Source: Basidiobolus ranarum (taxonomy: Eukaryota). Taken from it: a stretch of 38,210 nt of DNA. Shown here one piece after another: positions 1 through 38,210 of the stretch (position 1 is the first letter of the stretch; the number at the start of each line of letters is the position of its first letter). The translations under genes were made by a program, and so were the position numbers. Under the pieces are notes generated by a model. It searched no databases. It saw only the letters and a list, made by a program, of their open reading frames with translations, and had not been told where the DNA came from. Location of the stretch: contig JASJQH010006924.1 in the NCBI GenBank assembly GCA_040143965.1, positions 1-38,210 of the forward strand, written 5' to 3'.

Positions 1-496
1 TGACTTAACTTTTCTGCTTTGCAACATTCATACAAATACTCCAGATCTCCATACATTAGTTAAGAAACTACAAAAGTAGTTATGGCTTCTTTGTTTTGTT
101 TGAAATAAAGATTTCACCTTTTGGTGACTGTCTCCCCTAACCCTAAATAGTACACACTAAGTAGTATACACCTTTCTGTATGTTTATAGTATCAAACCTT
201 GATTAAATGTAACTTTCTCTTGTTGGATCAAACGGATTTGAATCGCCTATAATTGATTCATTTTTTCACATGAGATTTTTCAAAGTACAATATCTCTCCA
301 TGTGCAGGACAAGCAGCTTTAAACTTTGGTTTATTTGCATTCAATAAAACTGTATGCACAAAATGCATCGATTTGGGGCGATAGTGTATATTCGTTGCTA
401 CATCAATAATTTATTGCAAGTATTAGCACAGAAAGCTGAAGACAAGTTAAGCCATAAAAAGTTGAAATACAAGCTAGGTAGCACTTAAAGTGGAAA

Positions 497-1810
497 TCAA
501 ACCGGGTGGCCTCTTAAGGTAAGTTTCCAATGGCCATCATGACCATCGGTGTAGTCCATTTCAGGATAGAAATAGGCTGTCTTATAAGCGCCCACGGCAT
601 AAAGTAGGGCCACTAACAAGGGAGGAACACCTGGATTAAGTTCACATAACTTGGTAACAGTATCTTCAGCGTTACTATTGGCAACAGTAATCACTTTCCG
701 TAAGCGATCCAACTCATTTCCAGGAATCATGATTTTATGAGTACCACCAAAGTCATCATTGTTGGTCAAGAAATTCTTGATCGCCAAAGCACAAACTAGA
801 AATACAGCATACCATACTGGAGGAACGCCCACACCAGTAATCTCCTCTATGATTGTTTGAACCATATCTCCCCAAGAGTCAATAGTCAATTGATCAAGGA
901 GGATTTCAATGATTTTGTCCAGAATCTGATTTTCTCTGTCGTACTGGTCACCTGCATCTTGCTCCCAGGAATCGATGGTGATGGACATTCCACCTTGGAC
1001 TACGTTACGATAGAGAGTGTTTTTGGAGAAAGGTTCTACATCTCCTGGAGAAATAGCTCCAAAGACGTTGGAACGCCATTTAGTTGCAGTAGTCCCATCT
1101 GTGCATGCAAACCCAAAGAATGGCTCATCTCGTGTGGATTCTCCGGTGTCATCGATGCATTCCATCTCCACTGCCCAAAAGTCCCATGTACCGGAATTAG
1201 TTGATTTGACTTCGGAAAAGTTATTTGCTCTGCCAGCCACTTGTGCGGACCAACCAAGTTCGGCACTTGCCTTGGTATATTTAGGGCTCTGTTTTTTTGG
1301 TAAAAGGGCATCAAGTTCTTTCTCCAAAGTTGCCGCATTCACATCTTTTGTGGTTTTTAAATGCTCCTTGGCTTTAGCAATGATTTCTTTAGTGATGAAA
1401 ACTCGGTCAGTATTGATCAAACCAAGGTTTTGACTATTTTCAATAGCCTCTTTTCCGACTAGCGGGAGATCTTTGCGTAAATCCTCAAAGGTATAATCAT
1501 TGTCAGTGGTCAATTGAGCAAACTTCCCGGGTAAAATGGATGATCTCATGGTGGTAGATGCTTCGCGGTAAGATTTGCTGATGCTTGCAAGATCTTGGTC
1601 CGAGAAATCCGATTCTAGAAAGCAATTGACTAGCTTTTCTTCGAAAGTGGTCAGCTTCTTTCCCTCGGAATGCTTAGCAAATGAATGGAGAATTAGCCCG
1701 GTGAATTGATTGTAGGCCTTGTTTTTTTGGAGTTTTGTAGTAGCGTTGGTGGACGACCCGCTAAAGGCTTGATCCATGCGGCTGGCAATGCTCTGCTTAG
1801 TATTTGACAT
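497..1810 (-). CDS. Intronless 437-aa protein of unknown function (copy 1 of a tandem pair), with an acidic beta-rich C-terminal half containing two hydrophobic segments
   Basis: Long ATG-initiated ORF, conserved with many synonymous changes in the paralogue at 2645-3939. Motifs: CIDDTGESTRDEPFFGF, ITIDSWEQDAG, NNDDFGG, GHWKLTLR. Confidence 0.9.
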   Translation of the reverse strand: MSNTKQSIASRMDQAFSGSSTNATTKLQKNKAYNQFTGLILHSFAKHSEGKKLTTFEEKLVNCFLESDFSDQDLASISKSYREASTTMRSSILPGKFAQLTTDNDYTFEDLRKDLPLVGKEAIENSQNLGLINTDRVFITKEIIAKAKEHLKTTKDVNAATLEKELDALLPKKQSPKYTKASAELGWSAQVAGRANNFSEVKSTNSGTWDFWAVEMECIDDTGESTRDEPFFGFACTDGTTATKWRSNVFGAISPGDVEPFSKNTLYRNVVQGGMSITIDSWEQDAGDQYDRENQILDKIIEILLDQLTIDSWGDMVQTIIEEITGVGVPPVWYAVFLVCALAIKNFLTNNDDFGGTHKIMIPGNELDRLRKVITVANSNAEDTVTKLCELNPGVPPLLVALLYAVGAYKTAYFYPEMDYTDGHDGHWKLTLRGHPV

Positions 1811-2644
1811 GACTCAAGGTATGTAGGTTCTGGAGTAATAATTGTGTAGTAAACAACGATTTTATAGGCATTGCAAGCAACACGTAATCTAGTTGAGGAT
1901 TACATAGCTTGGGCCACCAATCTACCCTTTATTAAGTAACTAAGCCACCCTTTTACAGTGCTGATGTCTTTCAATACCTGGTCAGTGCAGAATTGAGTGG
2001 ATGATTAAAAGTATGTACATAAATACATGAAGCAAACAGGTTTCATTACTCCTATATTGAATTGCCTAATTGTATAACACATAAATGGTAGTTGGTACTA
2101 CAAAATCATACGTAAAAGCGTACAGTAAGACGGGGTAACATTTTGTAAGAGGGCGGACCAAGTAATGAGTGGTTTGAACCTGAATAGTTAGTATTGATTC
2201 AATAAAAGCAGAATAAAAGCAGAATTGTTGGATATGTTTAGCAGGTGTCGTGTAATGTTTTTGTCCTAAGCTTATACACTGTTCAGACACGATTTCTAGT
2301 ATCAGGATATTGCCAGCAGTCATGGAGCTGTGTAGCAATATTTGGAATGAAGATATATGGGAGACAATATAAACACTTTGGCAGTAGAATCCTACCATTA
2401 CGGCGCATTTAGGTTCAGCAAATTGAACTCAATAGTGGAGTAACATCTTTTCAATGAAGACAAAATTTATTGACCAACTATTTCTAAAATTAAGTTCGAA
2501 ATCTGGCGGTAGTTAGTGGTAACATTTAACCTCATAGCAAACTAAGTTTTATCACAAAGGGAGAAAACATGTTCACTTGTTTCAATTACTCAATCATTGA
2601 TTAGGAGATAATTAGGGTTAGGGAGACTAACAGAAAGGAGCAAT

Positions 2645-3939
2645 TTAAACGGGGTTAGCTCTTATAGTGAGTTTCCAATGACCATCAGTATAGTCCATTT
2701 CAGGGTAAATATGATAGGTTTTGAAAGCACCAATTGCGTAAAACAATGTTACCAGCATTGGTGACCAGCTGGGATGGAGTTCGCACAACTTAGCAAGAGC
2801 GTCGTCAGCATTACTATCTGCGACAGCAACAACTTTTCTTATGCGATCAAGCTCATTTCCGGGAATTATGATTTTATGTGTACCGCCAAAGTCATCATTG
2901 TTGGTCAAGAAATCCTTGATCGCCATAGCAATGATTAGAAATATGGCATAAACTACTGGAGGAACTCCTACACCTGTAATCTCTTCGACGACTATTTGAA
3001 CCATATCTGCCCAAGAGTCAATACTCAACTGATCAAGGAGGACTTCAATAATTTTGTCAAGAATCAGGTTCTCTCTGCCATATTGGTCACCTGCATCTTG
3101 CTCTCAAGAATCTATTGTGATCGACATTCCTCCTTTAACCACGTCGCGGAAGAGTGTATTTTTCGCGAAAGGCTCCACATCTCCTGGAGAAATAGCTCCA
3201 AAGACCTGAGAACGCCACTTAGTAGCAGTATTCCCATCACTGCATCCAAACCCAAAGAATGGCTCGTCACGTAGCCTAACCCTAAGCATTCCATCTCAAC
3301 AGCCCAGAAATCCCAGGTACCGGAATTAGTTGATGCGACATCAGAAAAGTTATTTGCTCTGCCAGCAATTTGTGCAGACCAACCAAGTTCTGCACTTGCC
3401 TGAGCATAGCTCTTTCTTTCTTTTTTTGGTAAAAGGGCATCAAGTTCTTTCTCTAAAACTGCTGCATTCGCATCTTTTGTGGCTCTCAAATGCTCCTTGG
3501 CTTTAGGAATGATATCTTTGGTGATGAAAGCTCGGTCAGTATTGATCAAACCAAGATTTTGACTATTTTTAATGGCTTCGTTTCCGATAAGTGGGAGATC
3601 CTTGCATAAATCCTCAAAGGAATAATGATTATTGGTGGTCAATTGAGCAAATTTGCCAGGTAGCATAGATGATCGAGTGGTGGTAGACGCCTCGCGGTAA
3701 GATTTGCTGATACCTGCAAGGTCTTGGTCAGAGTAATCCGATTCTAGGAAGCAGTTGACGAGCTTTTCTTCCAAATTGGTAAGTTTCTTTCCCTCGGATT
3801 GCTTAGCAAACGAATGGAGAATTAACCCGGTGAATTGATTATACGGCTTATTTTTTTGGAGCCTGGTATTACTGTTGATAGAGGACCCGCTAAAGGCTAG
3901 ATCCATGCGGCTGGCGATGCTCTGCTTAGTATTCGACAT
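2645..3939 (-). pseudogene. Disrupted paralogue (copy 2) of the 437-aa gene
   Basis: Colinear with copy 1 from the ATG at 3939 to the stop at 2645. Net -10 bp frameshift at 3273-3285 (13 bp replace 23 bp), a TGG>TGA nonsense change at 3104-3106, and a 9-bp in-frame difference near the C-terminus (DGHDGH vs DGH). Confidence 0.9.
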
Positions 3940-4330: not shown

Positions 4331-4738
4331 ATGAGCGGTTTGAGCCACCATCCACACGGATTTTCATAATTGAAATATTGATCAGATAAAAGCAGTATAT
4401 ATAAGAACACAAAGCCAATTATATTTGAGCCTCCATATCGTGAGTATCCATGATAGTGGTTAGGGTCAAGTGATCGCAAATTGATGGATCATTTAAATGG
4501 AATTCAGTACGTTGGAGCACTCTTCCAGTGAATTGTATTTCAATTAAATATTGTCTAGCAGGAATGTCTTATTTAGAATGAATATCTTTTCACTGGATAA
4601 TTTATTTGATTACCACAATGAAGCATGGCAAGTCGCTGCATTCAAATTTAGAGTTGAAATCAATTCCCTATATTGGTCATCGATGCTAGTGATAAAATTA
4701 TATCTAAACAAAGAATCGAAGCAGTACCATCCAGATAT

Positions 4739-4857
4739 TACTGTCCTAACCCTAAATCCTAATACTACTGTCCTAACCCTAAATCCTAATACTACTGTCC
4801 TAACCCTAAATCCTAATACTACTGTCCTAACCCTAAATCCCAATACTACTGTCCTAA
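4739..4857 (+). repeat. 27-bp minisatellite, about 4.4 copies, each containing CCTAACCCTAA
   Basis: Unit tactgtcctaaccctaaatcctaatac, nearly perfect. Confidence 0.95.
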
Positions 4858-5080: not shown

Positions 5081-5692
5081 CTACTGGTTAGAGCTGAAGA
5101 CTAAAAGATTGGGGGTGATACCCTTCTATCTTATGATCACATTCTTGGTGACTATGGACACAAGTGCAGTGTATACTTGAGCGGGTGTGCTCAAACCGTC
5201 TTGGGATAAGTACAATGCGGCAACACCAGCAAGATGAGGTCCAGCAATACTGGTACCCGAGATCTTTTTGCTGGCTGAGGTGATGTATTGGTCAGGTTCT
5301 GAGACTTTGACACATTTGCCGTAGTTACTGAAGCCGGCAGCACTAGTACTGGTGGTGGCTCTAACTGCGAATGCTCATCCATCATTCCACGCACCAGTGG
5401 TGACAATGTAAGTGACTCCAGCTTTGACTACGGCATCAACTGCCTGCGTCAAGGCCTCACTGCGGTTACCACCAAGTAACATATTGGGAACACTCTCGTA
5501 ACCACTGGTCGTGGCTTGCTGAGTAACCCAGTTGACTCTTAAGGTGACACTTGAGGAGGTACCACTGCCACAGAGTACCTTGATTCCAATGAGCTTGGCC
5601 TTCTCGGCTACACCATAACTGGTTCCTCCGACCGTTCTAGAGACGTGAGTGCCGTGACCTTTGAGATCCTCAATGGCCTCACTGCTGATGAC
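5081..5692 (-). pseudogene. Subtilisin (S8, proteinase K-like) protease pseudogene, 5'-truncated
   Basis: Manual translation in one frame: EDLKGHGTHVSRTVGGTSYGVAEKAKLIGIKVL...NMLLGG...G*AF...GFSNYGKCV...ISGTSIAGPHLAGVAALYL...TPNLLVF. The catalytic His and Ser motifs are present. There are internal stops (e.g. 5375-5377) and deletions, and no Asp motif or prodomain. Confidence 0.92.
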
Positions 5693-11099: not shown

Positions 11100-12038
11100 G
11101 ATCGTTTGCAGAACTTTGGATTGAAAGTGAAAGAGTGTGGGGAGCTGGTTTTATTCACACCTCAGTATCTATTTAATTGATTTCCGATCGTAATAGGTAG
11201 AATTACTTTTACATTGAGATGTACCCGAAGGAATCACCAACTGCTGGAAATTCGAAATCTAGAGCCGAATATCAATTCCAGGCCATCAAAATTACTAAAT
11301 TCCCTCATACGACTTCACACAAGCCAATAAGTCATGGCCATAGTGTTGTCTCGACCTCAACTTAGTCATCTCTATACATGGCGCTAGTAATTCATCGGGG
11401 CTCCCATTTTCTCTCTTTTTCCCTAATTCAGGTATTTACTTCCGAATTCCTTGATTTAGAATTTACCTCCGATCCCAACTAGCCGGGGTTTTTTTACTAA
11501 AGTTAGGGTTGGGGTTAGGGTTATGCTCGTGTCGTTATACTTCTATATGGAAATTATTATTGATATGCATTCATGCATAAATAGTGAAGTAAGGCTAAGG
11601 TTAGAGTTAAAGCAGGAATAATTTAAGATTTATTTTTAAACGAATGTTATCCGATGTTTAGTGAGTATTTTTCAAGGATATATAAGCATCTTCGTACCGC
11701 CTATTACATTACATTTAAGCAGGTTTTTTCTGTTGATTCGAAATCCAACTTAGAAATCGATGTTCTTGGTATATTCTTTAAATGTATAGGTAACAGTAAT
11801 TGGCTTTAAGGATAAAATGACTTCATAAAAAAAGAAGATTCGAGTATTTGCATTTGTATCACCTGGAAGTAGATTAATTATGGCTCACAACAGAAGATAT
11901 AACAATAGAGTAAATACCAAGTAGGCTTTTCATTTATCATGTATTCCAACTCTTACGAACAATAAGCTTCTTTAACCTTTTCAAACTTTACGCAACGGAC
12001 CCTTCTTTCTAATAACTAAACAACCAGTCTACTTAAAC

Positions 12039-15430: not shown

Positions 15431-15968
15431 GCCTTTACGCAAGTCCCTCTTCCAAGAACAAACATCGTTTATACGAATTTAGAAGTCGGTGGGCCTAAAA
15501 TGGTAACTAATTAGCATCGGAACACAATCCACGTGTAATCGAATAACATATGGAGTTGACGATCGAATAAGGGAAGTCATTTACCAAGAATAAATGAAAC
15601 TCAAACAAATGTCGACCAAGAAAGTAACCACCTTACCTCTACTGCTCAATCCACCAATATTTCCACATCCCGGCAATGGACTATTTACGGGAATGGATAA
15701 TTAGGTATGAGCCTTAACCGAGCTGGCATTTACCGAATATTGACTTGCCGAGATCATTGAACACAGTTGGGGATCAGTTCTGATATGGACTTGATATTTA
15801 TTAGTGGACTTATTCTAGGATAATAATAGTGCAAGAGTGAAAATAACGTCTAGAATGGACGTATAATTATTACAATACCGAAACTTACAGTCAACGACCG
15901 TCGTTTCGAAAAAAAGATTACAGGGTGTGATAATATGTAGGGTTAGGGTTAATCACCATGCTGGCAAT

Positions 15969-17198
15969 TTAAATGATTAAAGACTTGAACCAGCTATCCT
16001 CAAACACCTCATTGATGGTGATACGAGTATCTGGATTGGGATCCAGCATCTTGCGAATCAGTGGGAATGCGGCCCCGGGGATTCTTGTGAAAGATTTACC
16101 TTCCTTGCGGAACTCCAAATACATCGCAAAGTTCTTTTCGGTGTCTTTAGCCATATCCCATGGGAATTTTTTGAGAACCATACACAGATAAATGATGGCA
16201 GCTGACCAGATATCAGCCTTGGCTGCATCATAGGGTCGACCATCAAAGACCTCTGGTGCAATGTATGGATCGGAACCAGTGATTTCACATGCCTTAGCCC
16301 GATTTTCCTCACTCAAAGGGTCCAGGAAGATGAAGGCACATCCAAAATCAATAATTTTCAATGTTCCGTTCTCATCTACGCACAAGTTCTCCAATTTAAG
16401 ATCTCTGTGAGCCACACCACGGTGATGAAGGTAAGCGAGGCCACGCATCAATTGACCGAAGTAACTGTCAATTTCTTGTTGAGTCAATTGGTTCTCTTTG
16501 ATAACGGTGAACATATCTTGAGGACAGTATTGCATCACTTCGTGGATTTGGTTATCCTCCATGATGACATCGAGGGTTTGAATAACGTTCTCATGGACTA
16601 GAGAAGCGGAGATGTAGACTTCGTTACTGATCCATTCGTAATAGCGATGTTCGTCTTCTTCAGGTTTCTTAGTACGGAAGCTTTTAACGGCATACTTTCT
16701 ACCGGTGCGTGGGCAGTAAGTTTGTCTTACACCACCACCAGCACCACTACAGATATCGTTAGTGAAGCCACCATAGAGCTGATTGAGTGATGGAGCATCT
16801 CTTTTTCTTAATGCATCCAATAATGGCATGTAGTCCTTGGAGGCAGATTTGGCGTTGGATTCATGTTGGGACTTCAAATGTTTCTTACGTAAGTTCAAGA
16901 AACCGAAACGCTTATGATTTGTGGATTTACGTTCCTTCTTATTATCTCTAAATACAAATCTACTTGGAACCTTGTAGAGCGAGGACATTCCAGCTGTGAA
17001 GCAATCATCAGACGAACTACTTATCGTCACACCTGATTCAAGCTTGGTAGTGCTGTCGTTGAATCCAGTGGAGTATTGACTGGATAGACTCTCTTGTGAA
17101 TGGTAGGGAATGTGAATTCCTTTGTTTGGAGCTTGATGGTATAGATGTAAATGAGGGATCATTTGGTAAGTAGTCACTGGAGCTTTGGTAACCGCCAT
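15969..17198 (-). CDS. Ser/Thr protein kinase, HAL/NPR (Hal4/Sat4/Hrk1)-like, intronless. Likely start 17198; the ORF is open to 17279
   Basis: Motifs YAVK, HRDLKLENL, DFG, GSDPYIAPE, KADIWS, FPW. Start chosen by length comparison with the paralogue. Confidence 0.93.
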   Translation of the reverse strand: MAVTKAPVTTYQMIPHLHLYHQAPNKGIHIPYHSQESLSSQYSTGFNDSTTKLESGVTISSSSDDCFTAGMSSLYKVPSRFVFRDNKKERKSTNHKRFGFLNLRKKHLKSQHESNAKSASKDYMPLLDALRKRDAPSLNQLYGGFTNDICSGAGGGVRQTYCPRTGRKYAVKSFRTKKPEEDEHRYYEWISNEVYISASLVHENVIQTLDVIMEDNQIHEVMQYCPQDMFTVIKENQLTQQEIDSYFGQLMRGLAYLHHRGVAHRDLKLENLCVDENGTLKIIDFGCAFIFLDPLSEENRAKACEITGSDPYIAPEVFDGRPYDAAKADIWSAAIIYLCMVLKKFPWDMAKDTEKNFAMYLEFRKEGKSFTRIPGAAFPLIRKMLDPNPDTRITINEVFEDSWFKSLII

Positions 17199-18490: not shown

Positions 18491-18954
18491 GGTGTTTTCA
18501 TGAACATTATATGAACCTCACTTCCGATACGTTTCTCTTTCCTTAGATTAGCAGCATACTTCACCACTGGCCAGTATAATTATTTATCAATGTTTAAGTA
18601 CTTGGCTATAGCTAATCGGCGCATAGTCCCACCAAAGAGATATACATACTTTTACTTAATATGAGATGTTATCCAAGAATTGCTATTAAGTTCGCGCATA
18701 AAAAAACAAATACAATGTAACAGTAACCTGTGCTTTATTAAAAGTCTCACAAGTGGTGCTGGCTCATACAACTACTAGGTGTTCTGATCAGATCAAGAAT
18801 TATGATATGCGTTGACTTATTTCCTTATTCAAATATCTAATTTTTCCTAGCGCATTCACCATTGTTTGGCTACTATCGCACTCATGATATTCTCTCAATA
18901 GAGTGTTTCATACTTCGTTGCTCTTTAATTTGAATATGGAACTTTGGCTTTGTC

Positions 18955-19014
18955 TAACTAAGTACTAAGCTATATATGACCATATAGGTGTTTGGGCAGT
19001 GCTAATTTCAACAG
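18955..19014 (+). repeat. Dispersed repeat family, copy A (core only)
   Basis: taactaagtactaagctatatatgaccatataggtgtttgggcagtgctaatttcaacag matches 20383-20441 and 38004-38063. Confidence 0.85.
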
Positions 19015-20249: not shown

Positions 20250-20441
20250 GTTAAGGAAGGTCCCAGAAGCATGTGTGCAAAGTATGGGGCTTTTAGCACA
20301 AGTTCTCAAAATCTATATATCTTCAAGCTTCTAAGTAAATTCCTCTTGAGGACAGTGGGTGATATCTTAGTTCAATATGGAATAACTAAATACTAAGCTA
20401 TATATGACTATATAGGTGTTTAGTCTATGCGAACTTCAACA
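20250..20441 (+). repeat. Dispersed repeat family, copy B
   Basis: Aligns by eye over about 190-210 bp with 37852-38063. Confidence 0.85.
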
Positions 20442-21975: not shown

Positions 21976-23229
21976 TTATACAATCAGTGATTTGAACCAA
22001 CTGTCTTCGAAAACCTCATTAATTGTAATACGAGTGTCGGGATTGGGGTCCAACATCTTACGAATTAAGGGGAACGATTTTTTGGGAATATGGACAAAGA
22101 AATCTTCATTGTCTCTATATTGCAAGTACAATGAATAGTTGCTCTCGGATGGCTTGGCTACATCCCAAGGGAACTTCTTCAACACCATGCAGAGATAGAC
22201 GATAGCAGCGGACCAGATATCAGCCTTAGCTGCATCATACAATTCCCCACTGAAGATTTCTGGTGCAATGTATGGGTCAGAGCCGGTAAGCTCACATGCC
22301 TTGGCATGACCCTCTTCGTTAACTGGGTCCAGGAAGATGAAGGCACATCCGAAATCAACTATCTTTAAGTTACCCTTCTCGTCAACGCAAAGATTCTCAA
22401 GCTTGAGGTCGCGATGAGCTACACCACGATAATGTAAGTAGGCAATGCCGCGCATCATTTGGACAAAGTATTGATTGATTTCTTGCATTGTTGCTTGGTC
22501 ATTTTTGATGACATTGAATAGATCTTGTGGACAGTATTCCATTACTGTATGGATTTGTTCGTTCTCCATAACCACATCAACCGTTTGGATTACATTTTCA
22601 TGGACAAGTGATGCAGCGATGTACACTTCATTACTGATCCATTCGTAATAGCGCTTCTCGTTCTCCCCTCTTCTCATTTTACGGAAACTCTTGACGGCAT
22701 ACTTCTTGCCAGTTTGAGGGCAAGTGGTTTTTCTTACTCCTCCCATGGGACCACAGAAGATAGAATCGGTGTATTCACCGTATAATTGATTTAGAGATGG
22801 GGCAACCCGTTTTCTTAACGCCTCCAACAATGGAGTATACTGTTGAACTGCTTGTTTTGGTAGAGATTTTTCCACTGGTTTGGTGGACTTGAAACTGGAA
22901 AAGAAGTTGAAATGTTTGGATGTAGAGGATTTACGATCTTTCTTGGTGTCTCTAAAAATGAATCTGCTAGGAACTTTGCACAGGGAAGACATACTAATGG
23001 TGAAATGATCATTGAGGTCAGTGGATGTGCTGGGATCCGAAGAAGCTATGCTGGAGTATCCAGATTTGATAGAGCAGTTATCAAATTTGGCGGAGCAGTG
23101 AGAAAAGAGACTTTCTTGAGAATGATAAGGAATATGTATCCCTTTGTTTGGAGAGTTTACACTCATGTGGTGAATGTTATCGACCCCACGATGATTGTAG
23201 GGGATCATTATAGGCTTAGTGGTAGACAT
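21976..23229 (-). CDS. Ser/Thr protein kinase, HAL/NPR-like, paralogue of 15969-17198
   Basis: Same catalytic motifs, shared N-terminal NKGIHIPYHSQESL, near-identical C-terminus. Confidence 0.94.
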   Translation of the reverse strand: MSTTKPIMIPYNHRGVDNIHHMSVNSPNKGIHIPYHSQESLFSHCSAKFDNCSIKSGYSSIASSDPSTSTDLNDHFTISMSSLCKVPSRFIFRDTKKDRKSSTSKHFNFFSSFKSTKPVEKSLPKQAVQQYTPLLEALRKRVAPSLNQLYGEYTDSIFCGPMGGVRKTTCPQTGKKYAVKSFRKMRRGENEKRYYEWISNEVYIAASLVHENVIQTVDVVMENEQIHTVMEYCPQDLFNVIKNDQATMQEINQYFVQMMRGIAYLHYRGVAHRDLKLENLCVDEKGNLKIVDFGCAFIFLDPVNEEGHAKACELTGSDPYIAPEIFSGELYDAAKADIWSAAIVYLCMVLKKFPWDVAKPSESNYSLYLQYRDNEDFFVHIPKKSFPLIRKMLDPNPDTRITINEVFEDSWFKSLIV

Positions 23230-24314: not shown

Positions 24315-25087
24315 ACTCGAGATGAAGTGAGGGAGTAGTTTTGAGATGGGCTGAATACCCACTTATCATCCACTGCCTAATGTATTGCTACTTATTGTAA
24401 GTCACAAGACATCTTCAACAATGGTCAATTCCAACCATATGGTAGGTAGAATTGTGTTTGTAATTACAAGCCTGCTTACAGCCGGATACTCCATTATCCC
24501 GCTCTAACAAAAAAAATCCAATTCTGCTTCGAGTCATATCCAGGTGTGGTTTAATATTCAACCTCCCATCTGACAACTAGTTTATCAACACGATCGTAAT
24601 AGAGGCCTTATTTTTTAACTTCCTTATCTGAGGATTATATTCAATGCAAAGAATAAGCTCATTAGGGGTGTAATAGCTTTTCCATTGAACGTGTTCTCAC
24701 CGATATAGTACTTGGTATCCCCTTTTAAGGAGTTGAACAATCCAAACGTTTACCCGGCACTAACAAGGAAAAATCATTACCATTAGCACTAGACGTGAGA
24801 AGGCGTGAAGGGGCTAAAAATATCCAGGATGGAGATCTATGGATAGAGTTAGGTGAAGCGCTTCTAGTTTAAGCAAAGATATAAAGATTTTGACTTGCCA
24901 TAACATAAAGAGCGCAACAATGTTCTTCCGAAGACTTGATCAATGCTACTTTTCCTCGTGATCTTGGATATTTTATACTTTGTTGAGGTGAATCGAGATA
25001 ACGAGTGTCTTTTATCTGATGGCAAAATTTAATATAGTCAGCATATAGATTTAGGGTTAGCATCATCAAGATAGCTAGTGTTATTGG

Positions 25088-27643
25088 CTATGGTTTATTC
25101 TTTATGGAAATTAGCGATAGGCCGATTCTCTTTCGATTAATATCTATATTTTCTACACACACCTGGCATACCTGACCAGTTTGCAGTGTTTGATTACTCA
25201 TCTTAGAGATGTGGACCAATCCATTATCATGGATTCCTATATCAACAAACGCTCCAAATTGAGTGATGTTACTTACGGTTCCTTCCAGCTTCATCCCGAC
25301 TTTCAAGTCCCGGATATCTTGCACATCAGGGTCTAACTCCGCTACAACAAATGCTGACCGAGGATCTCTTCCGGGTTTTTCCAACTCGGCGATTATATCT
25401 TGGATGGTTATTACGCCGAAACCAGACTCAGGGTCAGTAAATTCCTTTGGATCAAGGCTACATAATGACCCCGGTCTAATCTTCTTGGTATCCTTAATTC
25501 CAAGTTTTTGAAGGATTTTACGTGCGATATGATATGACTCAGGGTGAATACCTGTACCATCTAACGGATCAACCTGCCCTTTTTTATCACTAATTGCGGT
25601 GGTCGGGATGCGCAAGAAACCTGCACACTGCTGAAATGTCTTTTTACCTAAACGAGGGACTTCGAGGAGTTGCCTTCGGTTTGTAAATGATCCATGTGTA
25701 TCTCGGTATTTTACTATCTCAGTTGCTGCTTTTTCTCCTAATCCAGAAACGTAGGTTAAAAGTTGCGCTGAAGCAGTGTTCAGCTGAACGCCAACTAGAT
25801 TAACACAATCCTCTACGGTACTTTCTAATGATTTCCCAAGTTTTGAAGGGTTGATGTCGTGTTGATATTGTCCAACCCCGAGTGACTTAGGATCTATTTT
25901 CACCAATTCCGCTAAAGGGTCTTGAAGTCGCCTAGCAATTGAGATAGCTCCTCTAATGGTCACATCCAGGTTAGGGAATTCTTTTATTGCCAGTGCCGAG
26001 GCCGAATATACGGAGGCCCCAGCTTCAGAGACAATAACTTTAGTTGGTTTGGCGATGTTTGTTTTGGCCTTACTTTGTCGTTCTTTGAAAGAGTCAAGAA
26101 GCTCTTGCACTAGCTTTGAGGTTTCTCTTGTGGCAGTTCCATTACCGATGGCTATTAGCCCTACCTTGTGCTTGATGCATAGATCCCAAAGGGCTTCTTG
26201 AGCCTCAGCCCATCGGCGTTGGGGTTGATGTGGATAGATAACAGTATGATCTAATAGTGCACCAGTGTCATCGATAACGGCTACCTTGACGCCTGTTCGA
26301 AATCCAGGATCGAGACCAATGCTTGGCTTTCGACCGGCGGGTGGTGATAACAAAATATCTCGGAGATTCGATGCAAAGATCTGGATTGCTTTGTCTTCAG
26401 CTTGCATCTTCAATTCTTTCATGATCTCTGCCTCAATCCTCTTGGCCATTTTGGTTGTCCATGCTTGCTTCACTATATCTTTCATAAAATGTTGATCGAA
26501 ATGGATTTCAAAATGACGAGCGATAAGTCTTAGATATTCTTCTGCATTTTTAATGGCAACCATGTCGTCACTATGCTTTTGCACGTTCGCCTCTTCCCTT
26601 TTCCTCTTTGTTGTGGTGTTTGGTGGTGATTTTGTTCTGATGGCTACTTGACATGTTAGAAAGCCCTCATTTTGACCACGTAAAATGGCCATTAACTGAT
26701 GGGATGCGATTCTACGAATACTTTCTTCTCGGTAGAAATAATCTCGATAGATGTCAGCGCCACGTTTACCTTCGATGTTCTTTTCCACGGTTTTAGAGGT
26801 TTTCCCCTTCTCATTTAATTTGGGTTTTTTACTGCTTTCACTTTTTGAAATCCCTTTTTTCGGTGTTACCATCAGATAACCGTATTTATTGATATTTTCT
26901 CTGATTTCTTGGGTCAAGTTAGGATCATCGGTGATCATATCCATTATAAGGGCTATAGTGCCCTCAAGAGCGAGTTGCTCGTCCTTCCTATATTCTAAAG
27001 CCTCGGGGGTGATATTTGAATCAAAACGGGTATTTTTTAAGAAATCTCTAGTAGCTGCCAATGCAATAGACCTCTTTTTTGGATGACTAGTGAAAAAATT
27101 CTTCGCCAAAGGTTGGAATCCAGCCTCCAAAGCCAATTTAGCTTTTGTGCCTTTTCTTTTAGGTTTAAAGGGTAGATAAATATCTTCCAAGTCGATCTTT
27201 TTGTAGGTAGTATTGATAAGTTTGGTTAAGGTTTCGTTTAAACAACCTTCTTTTTTTAAAGTTTTCAAGATAACTTGCTTTCTAGCTTCCAAGTCCAACA
27301 TATATTCTAAACGTTCTTCTAAACTTCGTAGTTTTATATCGGTCATATTTCCCGTTAACTCTTTACGGTATCTAGCGATAAAAGGAACAGTCATTTCTTC
27401 TCGTTTTAAAAGTCTTTGAACTGTATGGATTTGACTTGAAGTGACTTCGAATTCTTTTGCCAGAAAGTCTATTGTGTTTGTTGGAAGAGAAGTGATATTA
27501 TTGGTACTTTTTGTTAACCCAGAGTCGGATTCTGAATCGGAATCCACAAGTGCGTTCTTTGAAGTCATTATCGGGGGTATTATTCTAGAGTAAGGTCTTA
27601 GTCCAAGTATGTAAAGAGAAGGGGTGAATATCTTAGTTAGCAT
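25088..27643 (-). CDS. tex: Tex/YhgF family RNA-binding transcription accessory protein (Tex_N, YqgF, HhH and S1 domains), intronless
   Basis: Motifs TVPFIARYRKELTG, LEDIYLPFKPKR, GLDPGFRTGVK, IAIGNGTATRET, VSEAGASVYSAS, RRLQDPLAELVKIDPKSLGVGQYQHD, KPGRDPR, FGAFVDIG. Alternative start at 27568. Confidence 0.95.
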   Translation of the reverse strand: MLTKIFTPSLYILGLRPYSRIIPPIMTSKNALVDSDSESDSGLTKSTNNITSLPTNTIDFLAKEFEVTSSQIHTVQRLLKREEMTVPFIARYRKELTGNMTDIKLRSLEERLEYMLDLEARKQVILKTLKKEGCLNETLTKLINTTYKKIDLEDIYLPFKPKRKGTKAKLALEAGFQPLAKNFFTSHPKKRSIALAATRDFLKNTRFDSNITPEALEYRKDEQLALEGTIALIMDMITDDPNLTQEIRENINKYGYLMVTPKKGISKSESSKKPKLNEKGKTSKTVEKNIEGKRGADIYRDYFYREESIRRIASHQLMAILRGQNEGFLTCQVAIRTKSPPNTTTKRKREEANVQKHSDDMVAIKNAEEYLRLIARHFEIHFDQHFMKDIVKQAWTTKMAKRIEAEIMKELKMQAEDKAIQIFASNLRDILLSPPAGRKPSIGLDPGFRTGVKVAVIDDTGALLDHTVIYPHQPQRRWAEAQEALWDLCIKHKVGLIAIGNGTATRETSKLVQELLDSFKERQSKAKTNIAKPTKVIVSEAGASVYSASALAIKEFPNLDVTIRGAISIARRLQDPLAELVKIDPKSLGVGQYQHDINPSKLGKSLESTVEDCVNLVGVQLNTASAQLLTYVSGLGEKAATEIVKYRDTHGSFTNRRQLLEVPRLGKKTFQQCAGFLRIPTTAISDKKGQVDPLDGTGIHPESYHIARKILQKLGIKDTKKIRPGSLCSLDPKEFTDPESGFGVITIQDIIAELEKPGRDPRSAFVVAELDPDVQDIRDLKVGMKLEGTVSNITQFGAFVDIGIHDNGLVHISKMSNQTLQTGQVCQVCVENIDINRKRIGLSLISIKNKP

Positions 27644-27844
27644 AATGCGATATGAGTTGTTATGAGTAGGCTAGATAATGTTTAGATTTTTTTTGATTAT
27701 TATTGATTTCCTTTGTTTAGTGTTAACCAATCAATGATTCCTATCAAAAATAATTTCTTTGTCACTATATATTGAGTTTTCTTGTCCCATGATTTCTCAG
27801 ATCGAATAAATACCCCCGCTCTTTCCTGTGGAGAAATTATCAAT

Positions 27845-27988
27845 AAGGCCCTATCGAAGCTCTGATGCTTAGTTTCTCCATATGCTTACAGAGTCAATGT
27901 GTGGCCCATATGGTAAAAGTCCCAATAATGGCATATGGCGGTGCTCAATAAATTGTTGCCCGACTAAAGAAACCATATTGGTACATAA
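27845..27988 (+). ncRNA. Box H/ACA snoRNA, SNORA16/snR46-like, copy 1
   Basis: Hairpin 1: GGCC..CTCTG/CAGAG..GGCC, with pocket strands ATCGAAG and TCAA complementary to conserved LSU rRNA UUGA-UN-CUUCGAU. H-like box ATATGG. Hairpin 2: CCAATaATGG/CCATATTGG. ACA at 27983-27985. Confidence 0.8.
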
Positions 27989-28473
27989 TTCTTAATCCAA
28001 TTTCAAATTACATTACTTAACTTAATCAATGATTCCATTCATCTGGATTGTACTTCCAGTATACTACTGCGAACTTATTATTCGATTTCTAATGTTGTTA
28101 CGAAAGAGAACGTATCAGGACAACGATTAAATATTTTACGATTAAAATATTTGTTTGACAGAATCTCTGGGTTTTGAGAGGTATGATTGGCATTATTGGT
28201 CACTATGATTAGCTAGTACTGTATCTTATATTATGATGCATAAAAGTGAGCAAAGGAAGGTAAAACTTTCGAGTCAGTGAGATACTCGTTGAGCAATGAG
28301 AGAGAATAATTATGGAGTACATAAAACTGCGAAATTAGAGAAGAATTTTAAGGGATCCAAATCGAGATAAAAATTAAGCTAAAGTTAAAATCCCACTAAA
28401 AGATAACTGAGCGTTCCATGATTTCCCAGAATAAATAAATACTTCAACTCCAACCCAAAGTAAAATTATCAAT

Positions 28474-28616
28474 AAGGCCCTATCGAAGCTCTGATGCGTT
28501 GTTTCTCCATACGCTTACAGAGTCAATGTGTGGCCCAGATGGTAAAAGTCCTAACAATGGTATATGGCATGCTCAATAAAAAGTTGCTCGACTAATTAAA
28601 CCATGTTGGTACATAC
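28474..28616 (+). ncRNA. Box H/ACA snoRNA, SNORA16/snR46-like, copy 2
   Basis: Same guide pocket, H-like box AGATGG, a compensatory T-A to C-G change in the hairpin 2 stem (CTAACaATGG/CCATGTTGG), and ACA at 28611-28613. Confidence 0.8.
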
Positions 28617-29386
28617 ACTCTAAACATCAAAATTCCAATCAAAAACCAAAATATCAATCCACCCCACAACCGTACTTATTTTAAAGGTATATAACTAAAC
28701 GTACACCTCCACATCATCCTATAATGCATTGTGTGTTATATATATGGAGAAGTGCTATGAGCTAGTATTAATGGCAATTGTTTTATTAGCCTGATAATAA
28801 GAATACTACTAACGAACATACTTGAATTCTAATTATTGCTACTCCATCATTTCACCTTATCAGGATAATGATTGTCGGATTGACTAAGCAGTATATCAAA
28901 AGTTCCATGTCACCACTAAGAGATAGTAAAGCCCAAGTAAAAGCGATCTTTAAAGCAGAACCAAAGTAGGAGAATACACTCAGACACCCAGACACTCCAG
29001 CATGGTGCATCTTGAAAGGAGTAACTTGGAGAATGAGTGGGATAGCTTGGAGAGCTCGACCCCTGGTTATCTCCTTTGATTTATGTCACATACTATTACT
29101 AATCCTATTACATACATACTACTACTAACTCTATTATGCTGCGACTATGAAGCTCCTTAATGGATGGAGTTATTTCGGCATTTCGAGTAGGATGATCAAA
29201 GTTATTAAAGCACAGATCATACCTAATAAAGATTAATGCCAGAGCTGGTTGCAGATCTAGTGTATGCTTACAGTCACAATCTTTGATATAATTAGGTTGA
29301 TGTATATAAACGTACCAGAGCGAACCAGAAACAACATCCTTCGCACTTCTCACACATCTAATTACGCGACGTCTCTTACGGTCAAG

Positions 29387-30747: not shown

Positions 30748-31074
30748 TTCACGTAAATAAATAAAATGCGATCTTTTCATCTGACCAATGAATGTTTCCC
30801 ATTGCTGTATCCTAATAGAGGAATCTGGGGTGGCTTAGTGACGGGTCATAATGACCTAAGAGTTATCGGTAATTTAAAGGTGAAACCAGTAATAGTTTAT
30901 GAGTTATTTGAAACTCTATTGTATCTGGAATTTGAAACGCAAATCCTTCAATCATTGTCTACTAAAGAACTTTCTCCCCTCAAGTTTTCCAATTGAATGA
31001 TAACTTCATTGAATTGATTTCTCCCCCTCCTCATGCACTGGTGAATTCTTCCAACTAACCCTAATTTCCTTTGT

Positions 31075-31665: not shown

Positions 31666-31866
31666 TAGATTTAACGGCAACTAATTCATGTATAACTAAC
31701 TAAACCTTAAAGTGATCTTCATTAACCATTAACCCTAACATAAAGCTTGGTAAATAAAAGAGAGGGGCGAGTTTTTTTTGGGAGATAATTGACGAAAGGT
31801 TGGAAGAAAAGGTAGTTCAAGTTATACATCAATATGCAATATGTGACATGGAATTTACACATTTTT

Positions 31867-36786: not shown

Positions 36787-37851
36787 TGGAAATAAGGTAG
36801 AATTCAATGAAAATAATAACAATCAAATAGTGCTCGGCGTGACTGTTGACAAGAAGGTAACTGCTCAGAGCCTCTATGGTTAATGGGCTATATATATGCA
36901 TCGTCGATCCGTAAAAATCAATGACACAAAGACGAAACGGTGAATGGGGTGAATCGAAACATTGTCCGTACAAGTCATCAAACCAAATGGATCCTAAGTG
37001 GCTCATATATGTTGCTATCCTCGTTACTAGTTAAAATGAGCGTTTTGGTCTGCAACATCAGCGTTAATCTGTTATGGTTATTTATTGTTATGATGATTGC
37101 TTTATGACAGGCCAATACGTTAGCGGTCTCGAAGCATTCAGGTTAGCACCGGTTAGTGCCAATCCAAGGCTTTTAATGTCAAAATTTCTCCTTTCCTGTA
37201 GGCATCTTGCATTGGAGACAATGGTTGGTGAAAAGCGATGGCCATAAGTCTGTTTATAGAAAGACACAAGTCAATTATAAATTGCCCATTTTTAGCTCGT
37301 TTGATGGCCGAGTGTCTAGAACATGAGCTAATATTGTATTCATATTCATCAAACCTGCTGGTATCAGTTGTAGAGTTAAAAGGGTGTGCAAATATCATGC
37401 CTGAAGTCAAAAAGATGTGCAAATTCCCAGCATATCCTGCTTAACACCGACCATTTTAATATCAAGTTCACAGCTCTTTCATCCCTTTTCGTGCCTGTTT
37501 CTCTCACTAAATTCACAGGGGTTCTACTATTTGCCACGTTTCATTAACTTAGCTAGGTACATTTCAGCTCTGCATTCATTTCGCACAGGGTTTCATTTCG
37601 AGGTCTAGGGTTAGGGTTGCCTGTACCTATTTGCACTCATTCGCCACTATCTGCGCCCTAGATACTTAGGGTTATACGTATATTTCTATCATTTTCTGAG
37701 GTGACGCTGAACAGAGGTGACGCAAGGTTATCCAGATATTGTAATTACTGAGCTGCCTATTTCCACTTGGATGGTCAAATTGTTACTTAAATCATATTTA
37801 CACCACAGAATCAAAGCTATTGCCACTCAGATACATGCCCATTCAAGATAT

Positions 37852-38063
37852 GTTAAGAAAGGTCCCAGGAACTTGTGTGTAGAGTTTGGGGCTTCTAGCA
37901 CAAGTTTGAAAAATCTATAGATCTGTGAACCCCTAAGTAGGTAAAAATTTTCCAAGTAATTTCCATTTGAGAATAATGGATAATATCTTAGTGAATTATA
38001 ATATAACTAAGTACTAAGCTATATACAAATATATAGGTGCTTAGGCAATGCTAATTTCAACAG
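37852..38063 (+). repeat. Dispersed repeat family, copy C
   Basis: Homologous to 20250-20441 and 18955-19014. Confidence 0.85.
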
Positions 38064-38210
38064 GAAGACACTTACCAAACATGTTCTGCTGCCAGCAAGA
38101 TGTTTCTCAGAAGACAATTCTTTGACTTAAAGATGAGGCCATGAGAAGACATTGACTCACTAATGAATAGAGTCACTATTTTAGTGGATGAAATGAAATG
38201 CATTGGAGTA

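Follow-up and report, generated by a model that had tools for sequence, protein, structure and literature searches.

A telomere-phase filler at a colinear coding junction in Basidiobolus ranarum, in a contig rich in similar tracts

We find that a broken gene of the early-diverging fungus Basidiobolus ranarum carries a new telomere-phase insertion that came with the loss of coding sequence. The gene is the second of two tandem paralogues on a contig of 38,210 nt (JASJQH010006924.1), the whole of which was analysed and is referred to here as the window. Where copy 1 has 23 nt (1134..1156, minus strand), copy 2 has 13 nt (3273..3285, minus strand), consisting of an exact 11-nt run in TTAGGG phase (3275-3285), which reads TTAGGGTTAGG on the coding strand, and two non-telomeric bases that follow it (3273-3274). 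On balance, we favour the view that this filler is the scar of a rejoined double-strand break in copy 2 and that it was made by telomerase. Other telomere-phase tracts of 9-14 nt are found throughout the window; some are probably older scars of the same kind, and some are probably telo-box cis-elements.

The gene pair and the filled site

Copy 1 (497..1810, minus strand) is an intact, intronless gene of 437 aa that belongs to an unnamed, mostly actinobacterial family. We found no Pfam family for it, and the second half of the protein gives a weak lead to a C2-like fold. A representative search returned 116 proteins; among ten of these that we looked up, the named ones were from Archangium and Streptomyces. 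The nearest Atlas clusters of the family are mostly actinobacterial, and no other fungal member of this mostly actinobacterial and myxobacterial family appeared among the named matches. The pair probably originated by horizontal transfer, followed by tandem duplication. Copy 2 (2645..3939, minus strand) is broken by a frameshift and by one nonsense change, a TGG to TGA premature stop at codon 282 (3104..3106, minus strand) that lies downstream of the frameshift. Since dS is ~0.7 with a dN/dS of 0.15, selection must have maintained both copies for most of the time. Copy 2 thus experienced long purifying selection and a recent death, and a recent death fits the perfect state of the tract. Either of the two lesions may be the earlier one, and the insertion may therefore have entered a gene that was already dead.

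A sequence-only reading of this DNA had described the two sites, their colinear flanks and the resulting frameshift. The letters and coordinates that it gave, 23 nt at 1134-1156 and 13 nt at 3273-3285, are those of the contig, and the paralogue alignment bears out the rest: copy 1 and copy 2 are colinear on both sides of the filler, and copy 2, being 10 nt shorter here, goes out of frame past residue 220. The stored product of copy 2 (P0002) matches copy 1 over residues 1-220, diverges from that point and stops at 275 aa.

The further claim that the tract arose de novo, with loss of sequence, can be upheld independently of the paralogue, since bacterial homologues keep the lost codons. The 23 nt of copy 1 cover codons 219-226, in a motif that is conserved in these homologues. 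We counted conservation around the lost stretch over 116 aligned proteins (copy 1 and 115 matches), and found the cysteine of the motif in 89 of the 116 rows, the aspartate in 84 and the glutamate in 101. Over the lost stretch and its flanks, a Streptomyces homologue agrees with copy 1 at 11 of 12 residues. We conclude that the state of copy 1 is ancestral, because bacterial homologues keep these residues, the cysteine and the Asp-Glu pair; the same conservation rules out the reversed polarity, with copy 2 as the ancestral form. When proteins of similar or shorter length were searched, this contig's own products were the only matches, with no allele or orthologue of copy 2, and a gapped pattern covering both the empty and the filled state of the site had no match in the metagenome collection.

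Several simple sources of the filler can be set aside. The chance that an 11-nt run of this kind occurs in a random 13-mer of the window's composition is at most 6.5e-6, an upper bound that excludes a chance origin. Fusion of chromosomes, or an internalised telomere, is ruled out by the colinear flanks. As for a local template near the break, the only exact match to the junction region within 600 nt is a single 8-mer of the flank, at 3763. The 11-mer of the filler is present at three further separate places within the first 5 kb of the window, with identical copies 650 nt away (inverted) and 1.5 kb away (direct); matches that cover the tract consist of the bare repeat itself. On the priming side, as judged from copy 1 and the Streptomyces homologue, nothing matches the register of the repeat, which weighs against telomerase: the retained sequence ends in C at a position where the phase calls for G, and the lost codon that follows is Ile in both copy 1 and the Streptomyces homologue.

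Telomere-phase tracts along the window

The window is strongly enriched in exact telomere-phase runs, which range in length from 9 to 14 nt. There are 19 runs of at least 9 nt, 14 of at least 10, 10 of at least 11 and 5 of at least 12. Order-1 Markov controls (60 replicates) predict 0.97, 0.33, 0.07 and 0.03 runs at these thresholds, and across the order-1 and order-3 controls the expectation for runs of at least 9 nt is 0.97-1.3, as compared with the 19 seen. The excess is smaller against order-5 controls, in which hexamer counts are kept and which give 6.8, 2.7, 1.1 and 0.45 (60 replicates); their maxima are 13 runs of at least 9 nt and 5 of at least 11 nt, against 19 and 10 in the window, three of each being extra copies within a tandem array. 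Among 350 hexamer classes, that of TTAGGG comes first at 9, 10 and 11 nt. The five runs of at least 12 nt, which exclude the focal tract, correspond to 131 per Mb, with 0.015 expected in the window. This density is ~47 times that of Pyricularia (~2.8 per Mb), in a comparison of one unplaced 38-kb contig with whole genomes that were searched by another method.

Four of the 19 runs lie in one 27-bp tandem array, and collapsing these leaves 16 runs; joining two adjacent runs gives 15 distinct tracts. The array (4735..4857, minus strand) has 4.6 copies, four of its units contain the 11-mer of the filler, and it was counted as one tract. Each unit comprises a unique 9-mer and a telomere-like stretch. 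On the G strand the array starts at a bare TTAGG, and it looks like the product of a seeded insertion, accompanied by a short duplication, that was later amplified four times. Near the start of the window, a 12-nt tract (135..146, minus strand) touches a tandem duplication with a period of 14 nt, and another 12-nt tract lies 22 nt past the stop of copy 2 (2612..2623, plus strand). An interrupted tract of 22 nt (11502..11523, plus strand), made of 9-nt and 12-nt runs, is situated 403 nt upstream of a HemN-like gene. Two further plus-strand tracts lie past stop codons, one of 14 nt (15938..15951) 18 nt past the stop of kinase 1 and one of 10 nt (25051..25060) 28 nt past the stop of a Tex-like gene. 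An F-box-like ORF is accompanied by two 10-nt tracts on the minus strand, one immediately upstream (31055..31064) and one 65 nt past its stop (31730..31739). Lastly, two intergenic tracts of 13 nt (37606-37618) and 9 nt (37666-37674) lie close together on the plus strand (37606..37674).

The window's two kinases (15969-17195 and 21976-23229) are paralogous and intronless, and are 71% identical in DNA. The Tex-like gene (25088-27640) is intronless and encodes an 850-aa Tex-family protein with Tex_N, YqgF, HHH and S1 domains. Upstream of it stand two 228-nt non-coding copies (27784-28008 and 28413-28639), 82% identical and 630 nt apart, which are possibly a pair of small RNA genes; a search of Rfam over the window, including these copies, gave no match. 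A methyltransferase in the window has its best outside match in Basidiobolus meristosporus, at 75% identity, in agreement with a Basidiobolus host.

We asked whether the tracts share anything beyond the repeat. Among the flanks of the 15 distinct tracts, the best shared scores, 13.5 and 10, compare with a median of 10 in the null set of random pairs, and the bases that follow the tract differ from one tract to the next. Since the flanks share nothing above random pairs, the tracts are not the end of one element, and a shared element end was rejected as their source. Along the contig the 15 tracts are of mixed orientation (6 C, 9 G). Ten of the 16 runs contain TTAGGGTTA. On the G strand, 7 of the 16 runs start at TTA (p=0.02, post hoc); when two runs inside other reading frames are dropped and the double tract is counted once, 7 of the 13 non-coding-plus-focal tracts start exactly at TTA, where 0.19 is expected (p=0.006, post hoc). 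Of three models for the start phase, a mixture fits best (logL -17.8), ahead of a uniform start (-22.2) and a start always at TTA (-24.4). The TTAGGGTTA core is also a binding site of the Myb/telobox type; hence, the phase bias does not single out telomerase.

The sequence-only reading had gone further, proposing that the organism routinely patches internal breaks with about one template length of telomeric sequence. Part of this stands, in that the window is strongly enriched in tracts whose size, 9-14 nt, is close to that of one fungal template; routine use would be a step beyond this. Paralogues within the window offer a direct count, and it went against the claim: in 15 indel blocks from five paralogue pairs, tallied with 8 nt of padding, one block contains a telomere-phase run of at least 9 nt, and this block is the focal one, with two others reaching 6 nt. 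No run of at least 9 nt is present in a broken subtilisin-like gene (5126-5692), a subtilase (Peptidase_S8) pseudogene that has apparently suffered deletions and contains an in-frame stop. A dispersed repeat in three decayed copies (18919-19014, 20250-20441 and 37852-38210), which by eye we take to resemble the Copia gag region, is also present; in one of the copies an 18-nt indel includes a telomere-phase run of 6 nt, and a pattern for this repeat had no match in the metagenome and viral collections. By eye, the tracts at 135, 2612, 4745 and 31730 appeared to be linked to small tandem duplications, an association that a fixed rule did not sustain (2 of 15 vs 22 of 600, p=0.10). Short two-copy tandem duplications are numerous window-wide (32 Tandem Repeats Finder rows) and may reflect frequent fill-in repair.

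An alternative for the window as a whole is that most tracts are selected telo-box cis-elements, bound by a Tbf1/Myb-type factor or acting in RNA, and that the focal insertion is a rare one-off. We consider this a serious contender that falls just short of an even chance, on a scale separate from that used for the mechanisms of the focal event, since it bears on how routine such insertions are and not on the focal junction. CCCTAA lies on the sense strand of the nearest gene for 12 of the 15 tracts (p=0.035), and 4 of 12 non-coding tracts fall within 100 nt past a stop codon, as compared with 7.7% of non-coding bases (p=0.01). The focal tract is among the three of opposite orientation. Both biases would fit telo-boxes, and both are post hoc and use rough gene bounds in one window; moreover, the window's genes are mostly on one strand, so that the 15 tracts are not independent trials. 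The tracts 18-65 nt past the stop in four genes (2612, 15938, 25051 and 31730) all have CCCTAA on the sense strand and constitute a candidate 3'-end cis-element. Kinase 2 has a degenerate look-alike at the place of the 14-nt tract of kinase 1, as a conserved element might, whereas the 3' region of copy 1, where the alignment is poor, has no run like the 2612..2623 tract of copy 2. The idea has a precedent in yeast, where Tbf1 is described as binding TTAGGG at promoters and serving as an insulator (PMC6410037). However, it gives no account of a tract that replaces conserved codons. The bias in strand and position of the other tracts near genes would fit cis-elements as well as scars, and both classes may be present in the window.

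Origin of the focal filler

We propose that the filler arose in the following way. A break would have opened in the coding region of copy 2, and the ~23 nt now missing would have been lost from its ends. With no telomeric seed to start from, telomerase would then have acted on the coding strand's 3' end and added roughly one template length, beginning from TTAGGG, the start of a fungal-type template 5'-UAACCCUAA-3', a course suggested by the letters of the tract. No new telomere would have been set up; instead, the extended end would have been rejoined to its own partner by end-joining, as the colinear flanks suggest, with the two untemplated or otherwise unexplained bases added at rejoining. 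Ciliate telomerases reportedly have a default start register on non-telomeric ends.

The dimensions of the tract are consistent with fungal enzymes. The telomerase of Ustilago has the template 5'-UAACCCUAA-3', a full copy of which is TTAGGGTTA (PMC9564094), and that of Neurospora is described as having a 9-nt template of 1.5 repeats (PMC3592445). A TTAGGG telomere repeat is reported for Rhizophagus, which belongs to a different phylum from Basidiobolus. For Basidiobolus itself we found no statement of the telomere repeat in the literature searched; the main text of TeloBase does not include the genus, and its database and supplements may carry the motif. B. ranarum is reported to have a haploid genome of ~350 Mb in ~60 to many hundreds of small chromosomes (PMC3281927), and the demand for telomerase may be high in this species because its small chromosomes are so many.

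Among alternatives for the focal event, the one that survives best, and that we nevertheless regard as unlikely, is independent of telomerase: end-joining would have captured a free piece of telomeric DNA, or the 11 nt would have been copied by a repair polymerase from a true telomere or one of the many internal tracts. Identical 11-mers lie at the distances given above, many small chromosomes amount to much telomeric DNA, no in-register seed would be necessary, and capture is a named alternative in mammalian work (PMC2246262). However, the filler carries no flank of any tract in the window, and captured pieces would be expected to show random phase and a wider spread of lengths than the 9-14 nt found here, with their lean towards one start.

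Less probable again, in our view, is an origin from a LINE whose RNA carries a telomere-repeat stub at its end. The filler would then be a copy with extreme 5' truncation, for which the LINE reverse transcriptase would have used the broken end as primer, read through the stub and two further bases, and gone no further. With a fixed RNA 3' end, the G-strand start would also be fixed and the two extra bases could be accounted for, and truncated MoTeR relics with telomere stubs are described at internal sites in Pyricularia (PMC7367193, PMC8381367). Against this, none of the 15 tracts shares a flank beyond the level of random pairs, so no longer truncations stand beside the stubs; the bases after the tract vary; and the site shows a deletion rather than a target-site duplication. 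An artefact of assembly or library construction is very improbable: although database records of the two proteins come from a single contig and the junction pattern has no match in the metagenome collection, the flanks on either side are colinear and belong specifically to copy 2, similar perfect tracts occur elsewhere along the contig, and an 11-nt repeat is far shorter than the usual assembly words.

The proposed telomerase scar can be extended to a broader proposal, which we hold to be doubtful. In Basidiobolus, with its many small chromosomes, telomerase would be an everyday filler polymerase of end-joining, adding about one template length to unseeded breaks that are then rejoined, and so leaving a scar every few kb of non-coding DNA, knocking out genes and creating new telo-box sites.

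Comparison with known systems and significance

Insertion of telomere repeats at repaired breaks is established by comparison in vertebrates (PMC8537989, PMC6410037), and in primates, rodents and horses short interstitial telomeric sequences (s-ITS) are described as having entered at sites of double-strand breaks (Nergadze et al. 2007, PMC2246262; Sola et al. 2021, PMC8537989). The focal filler resembles these in appearing in one step at an unrelated site, with an empty homologous site that gives polarity; in showing changes of the end-joining type, here 23 nt lost and 2 non-telomeric nt added; in its colinear flanks; and in its perfect repeat, a trait of young insertions. Loss of target sequence is named as the commonest accompaniment of mammalian insertions, at 50-52% of loci (PMC2246262), and among TERC-ITS loci deletion with extra bases is the commonest class (12 of 29; PMC8537989).

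The differences concern length, seed and setting. Whereas s-ITS are described as having 2-25 copies (PMC6410037), with one survey counting four or more units (PMC2246262), the focal tract has 11 nt, or 1.8 units, and so falls short of two. At least one in-register base is reported at 67-80% of species-specific mammalian loci (PMC2246262), a feature that is common rather than universal; the focal break has none. In addition, the empty site comes from a paralogue and not an orthologue, the host is an early-diverging fungus, the insertion is in a coding region, and short tracts are dense nearby. From these sequence features the filler would appear to be a variant of s-ITS rather than a member, shorter than the defined class and lacking an in-register seed. 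In TERC-ITS, a piece copied from telomerase RNA outside the template lies beside the tract; the focal site has two extra nt, and the neighbours of the tracts share no sequence. The filler does not resemble the relic of a telomere-tailed retrotransposon, in which a shared element 3' end adjoins the stub, as no flank is common to the 15 tracts.

The closest fungal parallel is Pyricularia oryzae, whose genome also has internal two-repeat TTAGGG motifs above chance, on average ~119 per 43-Mb genome, or ~2.8 per Mb (PMC8381367). These have been interpreted as one-time telomeres that became internal, or as relics of MoTeR elements (Rahnama et al. 2020, PMC7367193; 2021, PMC8381367), and are described there as mostly subterminal and often associated with a rearrangement or a retrotransposon end. 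In contrast, the Basidiobolus filler lies between colinear flanks with no element, in a window that has 131 runs of at least 12 nt per Mb. Telo-box or Tbf1-type TTAGGG sites (as described in PMC6410037) are also short motifs near gene starts and ends; however, these are selected binding sites, whereas the focal tract destroys coding sequence and is oriented, relative to the nearest gene, opposite to most tracts in the window. In the titles and abstract openings that our literature search covered, with subscription journals thinly represented, we found no telomeric fillers of less than two repeats at colinear fungal junctions.

The scar is thus of a known kind, in a new lineage, at the short extreme and amid a striking excess of similar tracts. 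If most of these tracts are telo-boxes, one tidy scar of a known kind remains. Telomerase insertion at internal breaks is still indirect, because it is inferred from vertebrate comparisons, and in one test that covered over 35,000 induced junctions, none is stated to have carried a telomerase insertion (PMC8537989). A culturable fungus with a tract density tens of times that of another TTAGGG fungus, together with a polarised coding insertion, could make the question testable. The tracts would also yield a telomere motif and a template register for the Basidiobolus lineage, neither of which we found in the literature searched. If telomerase does serve as an everyday filler in Basidiobolus, telomerase-assisted end-joining would be common enough in this organism for direct observation.
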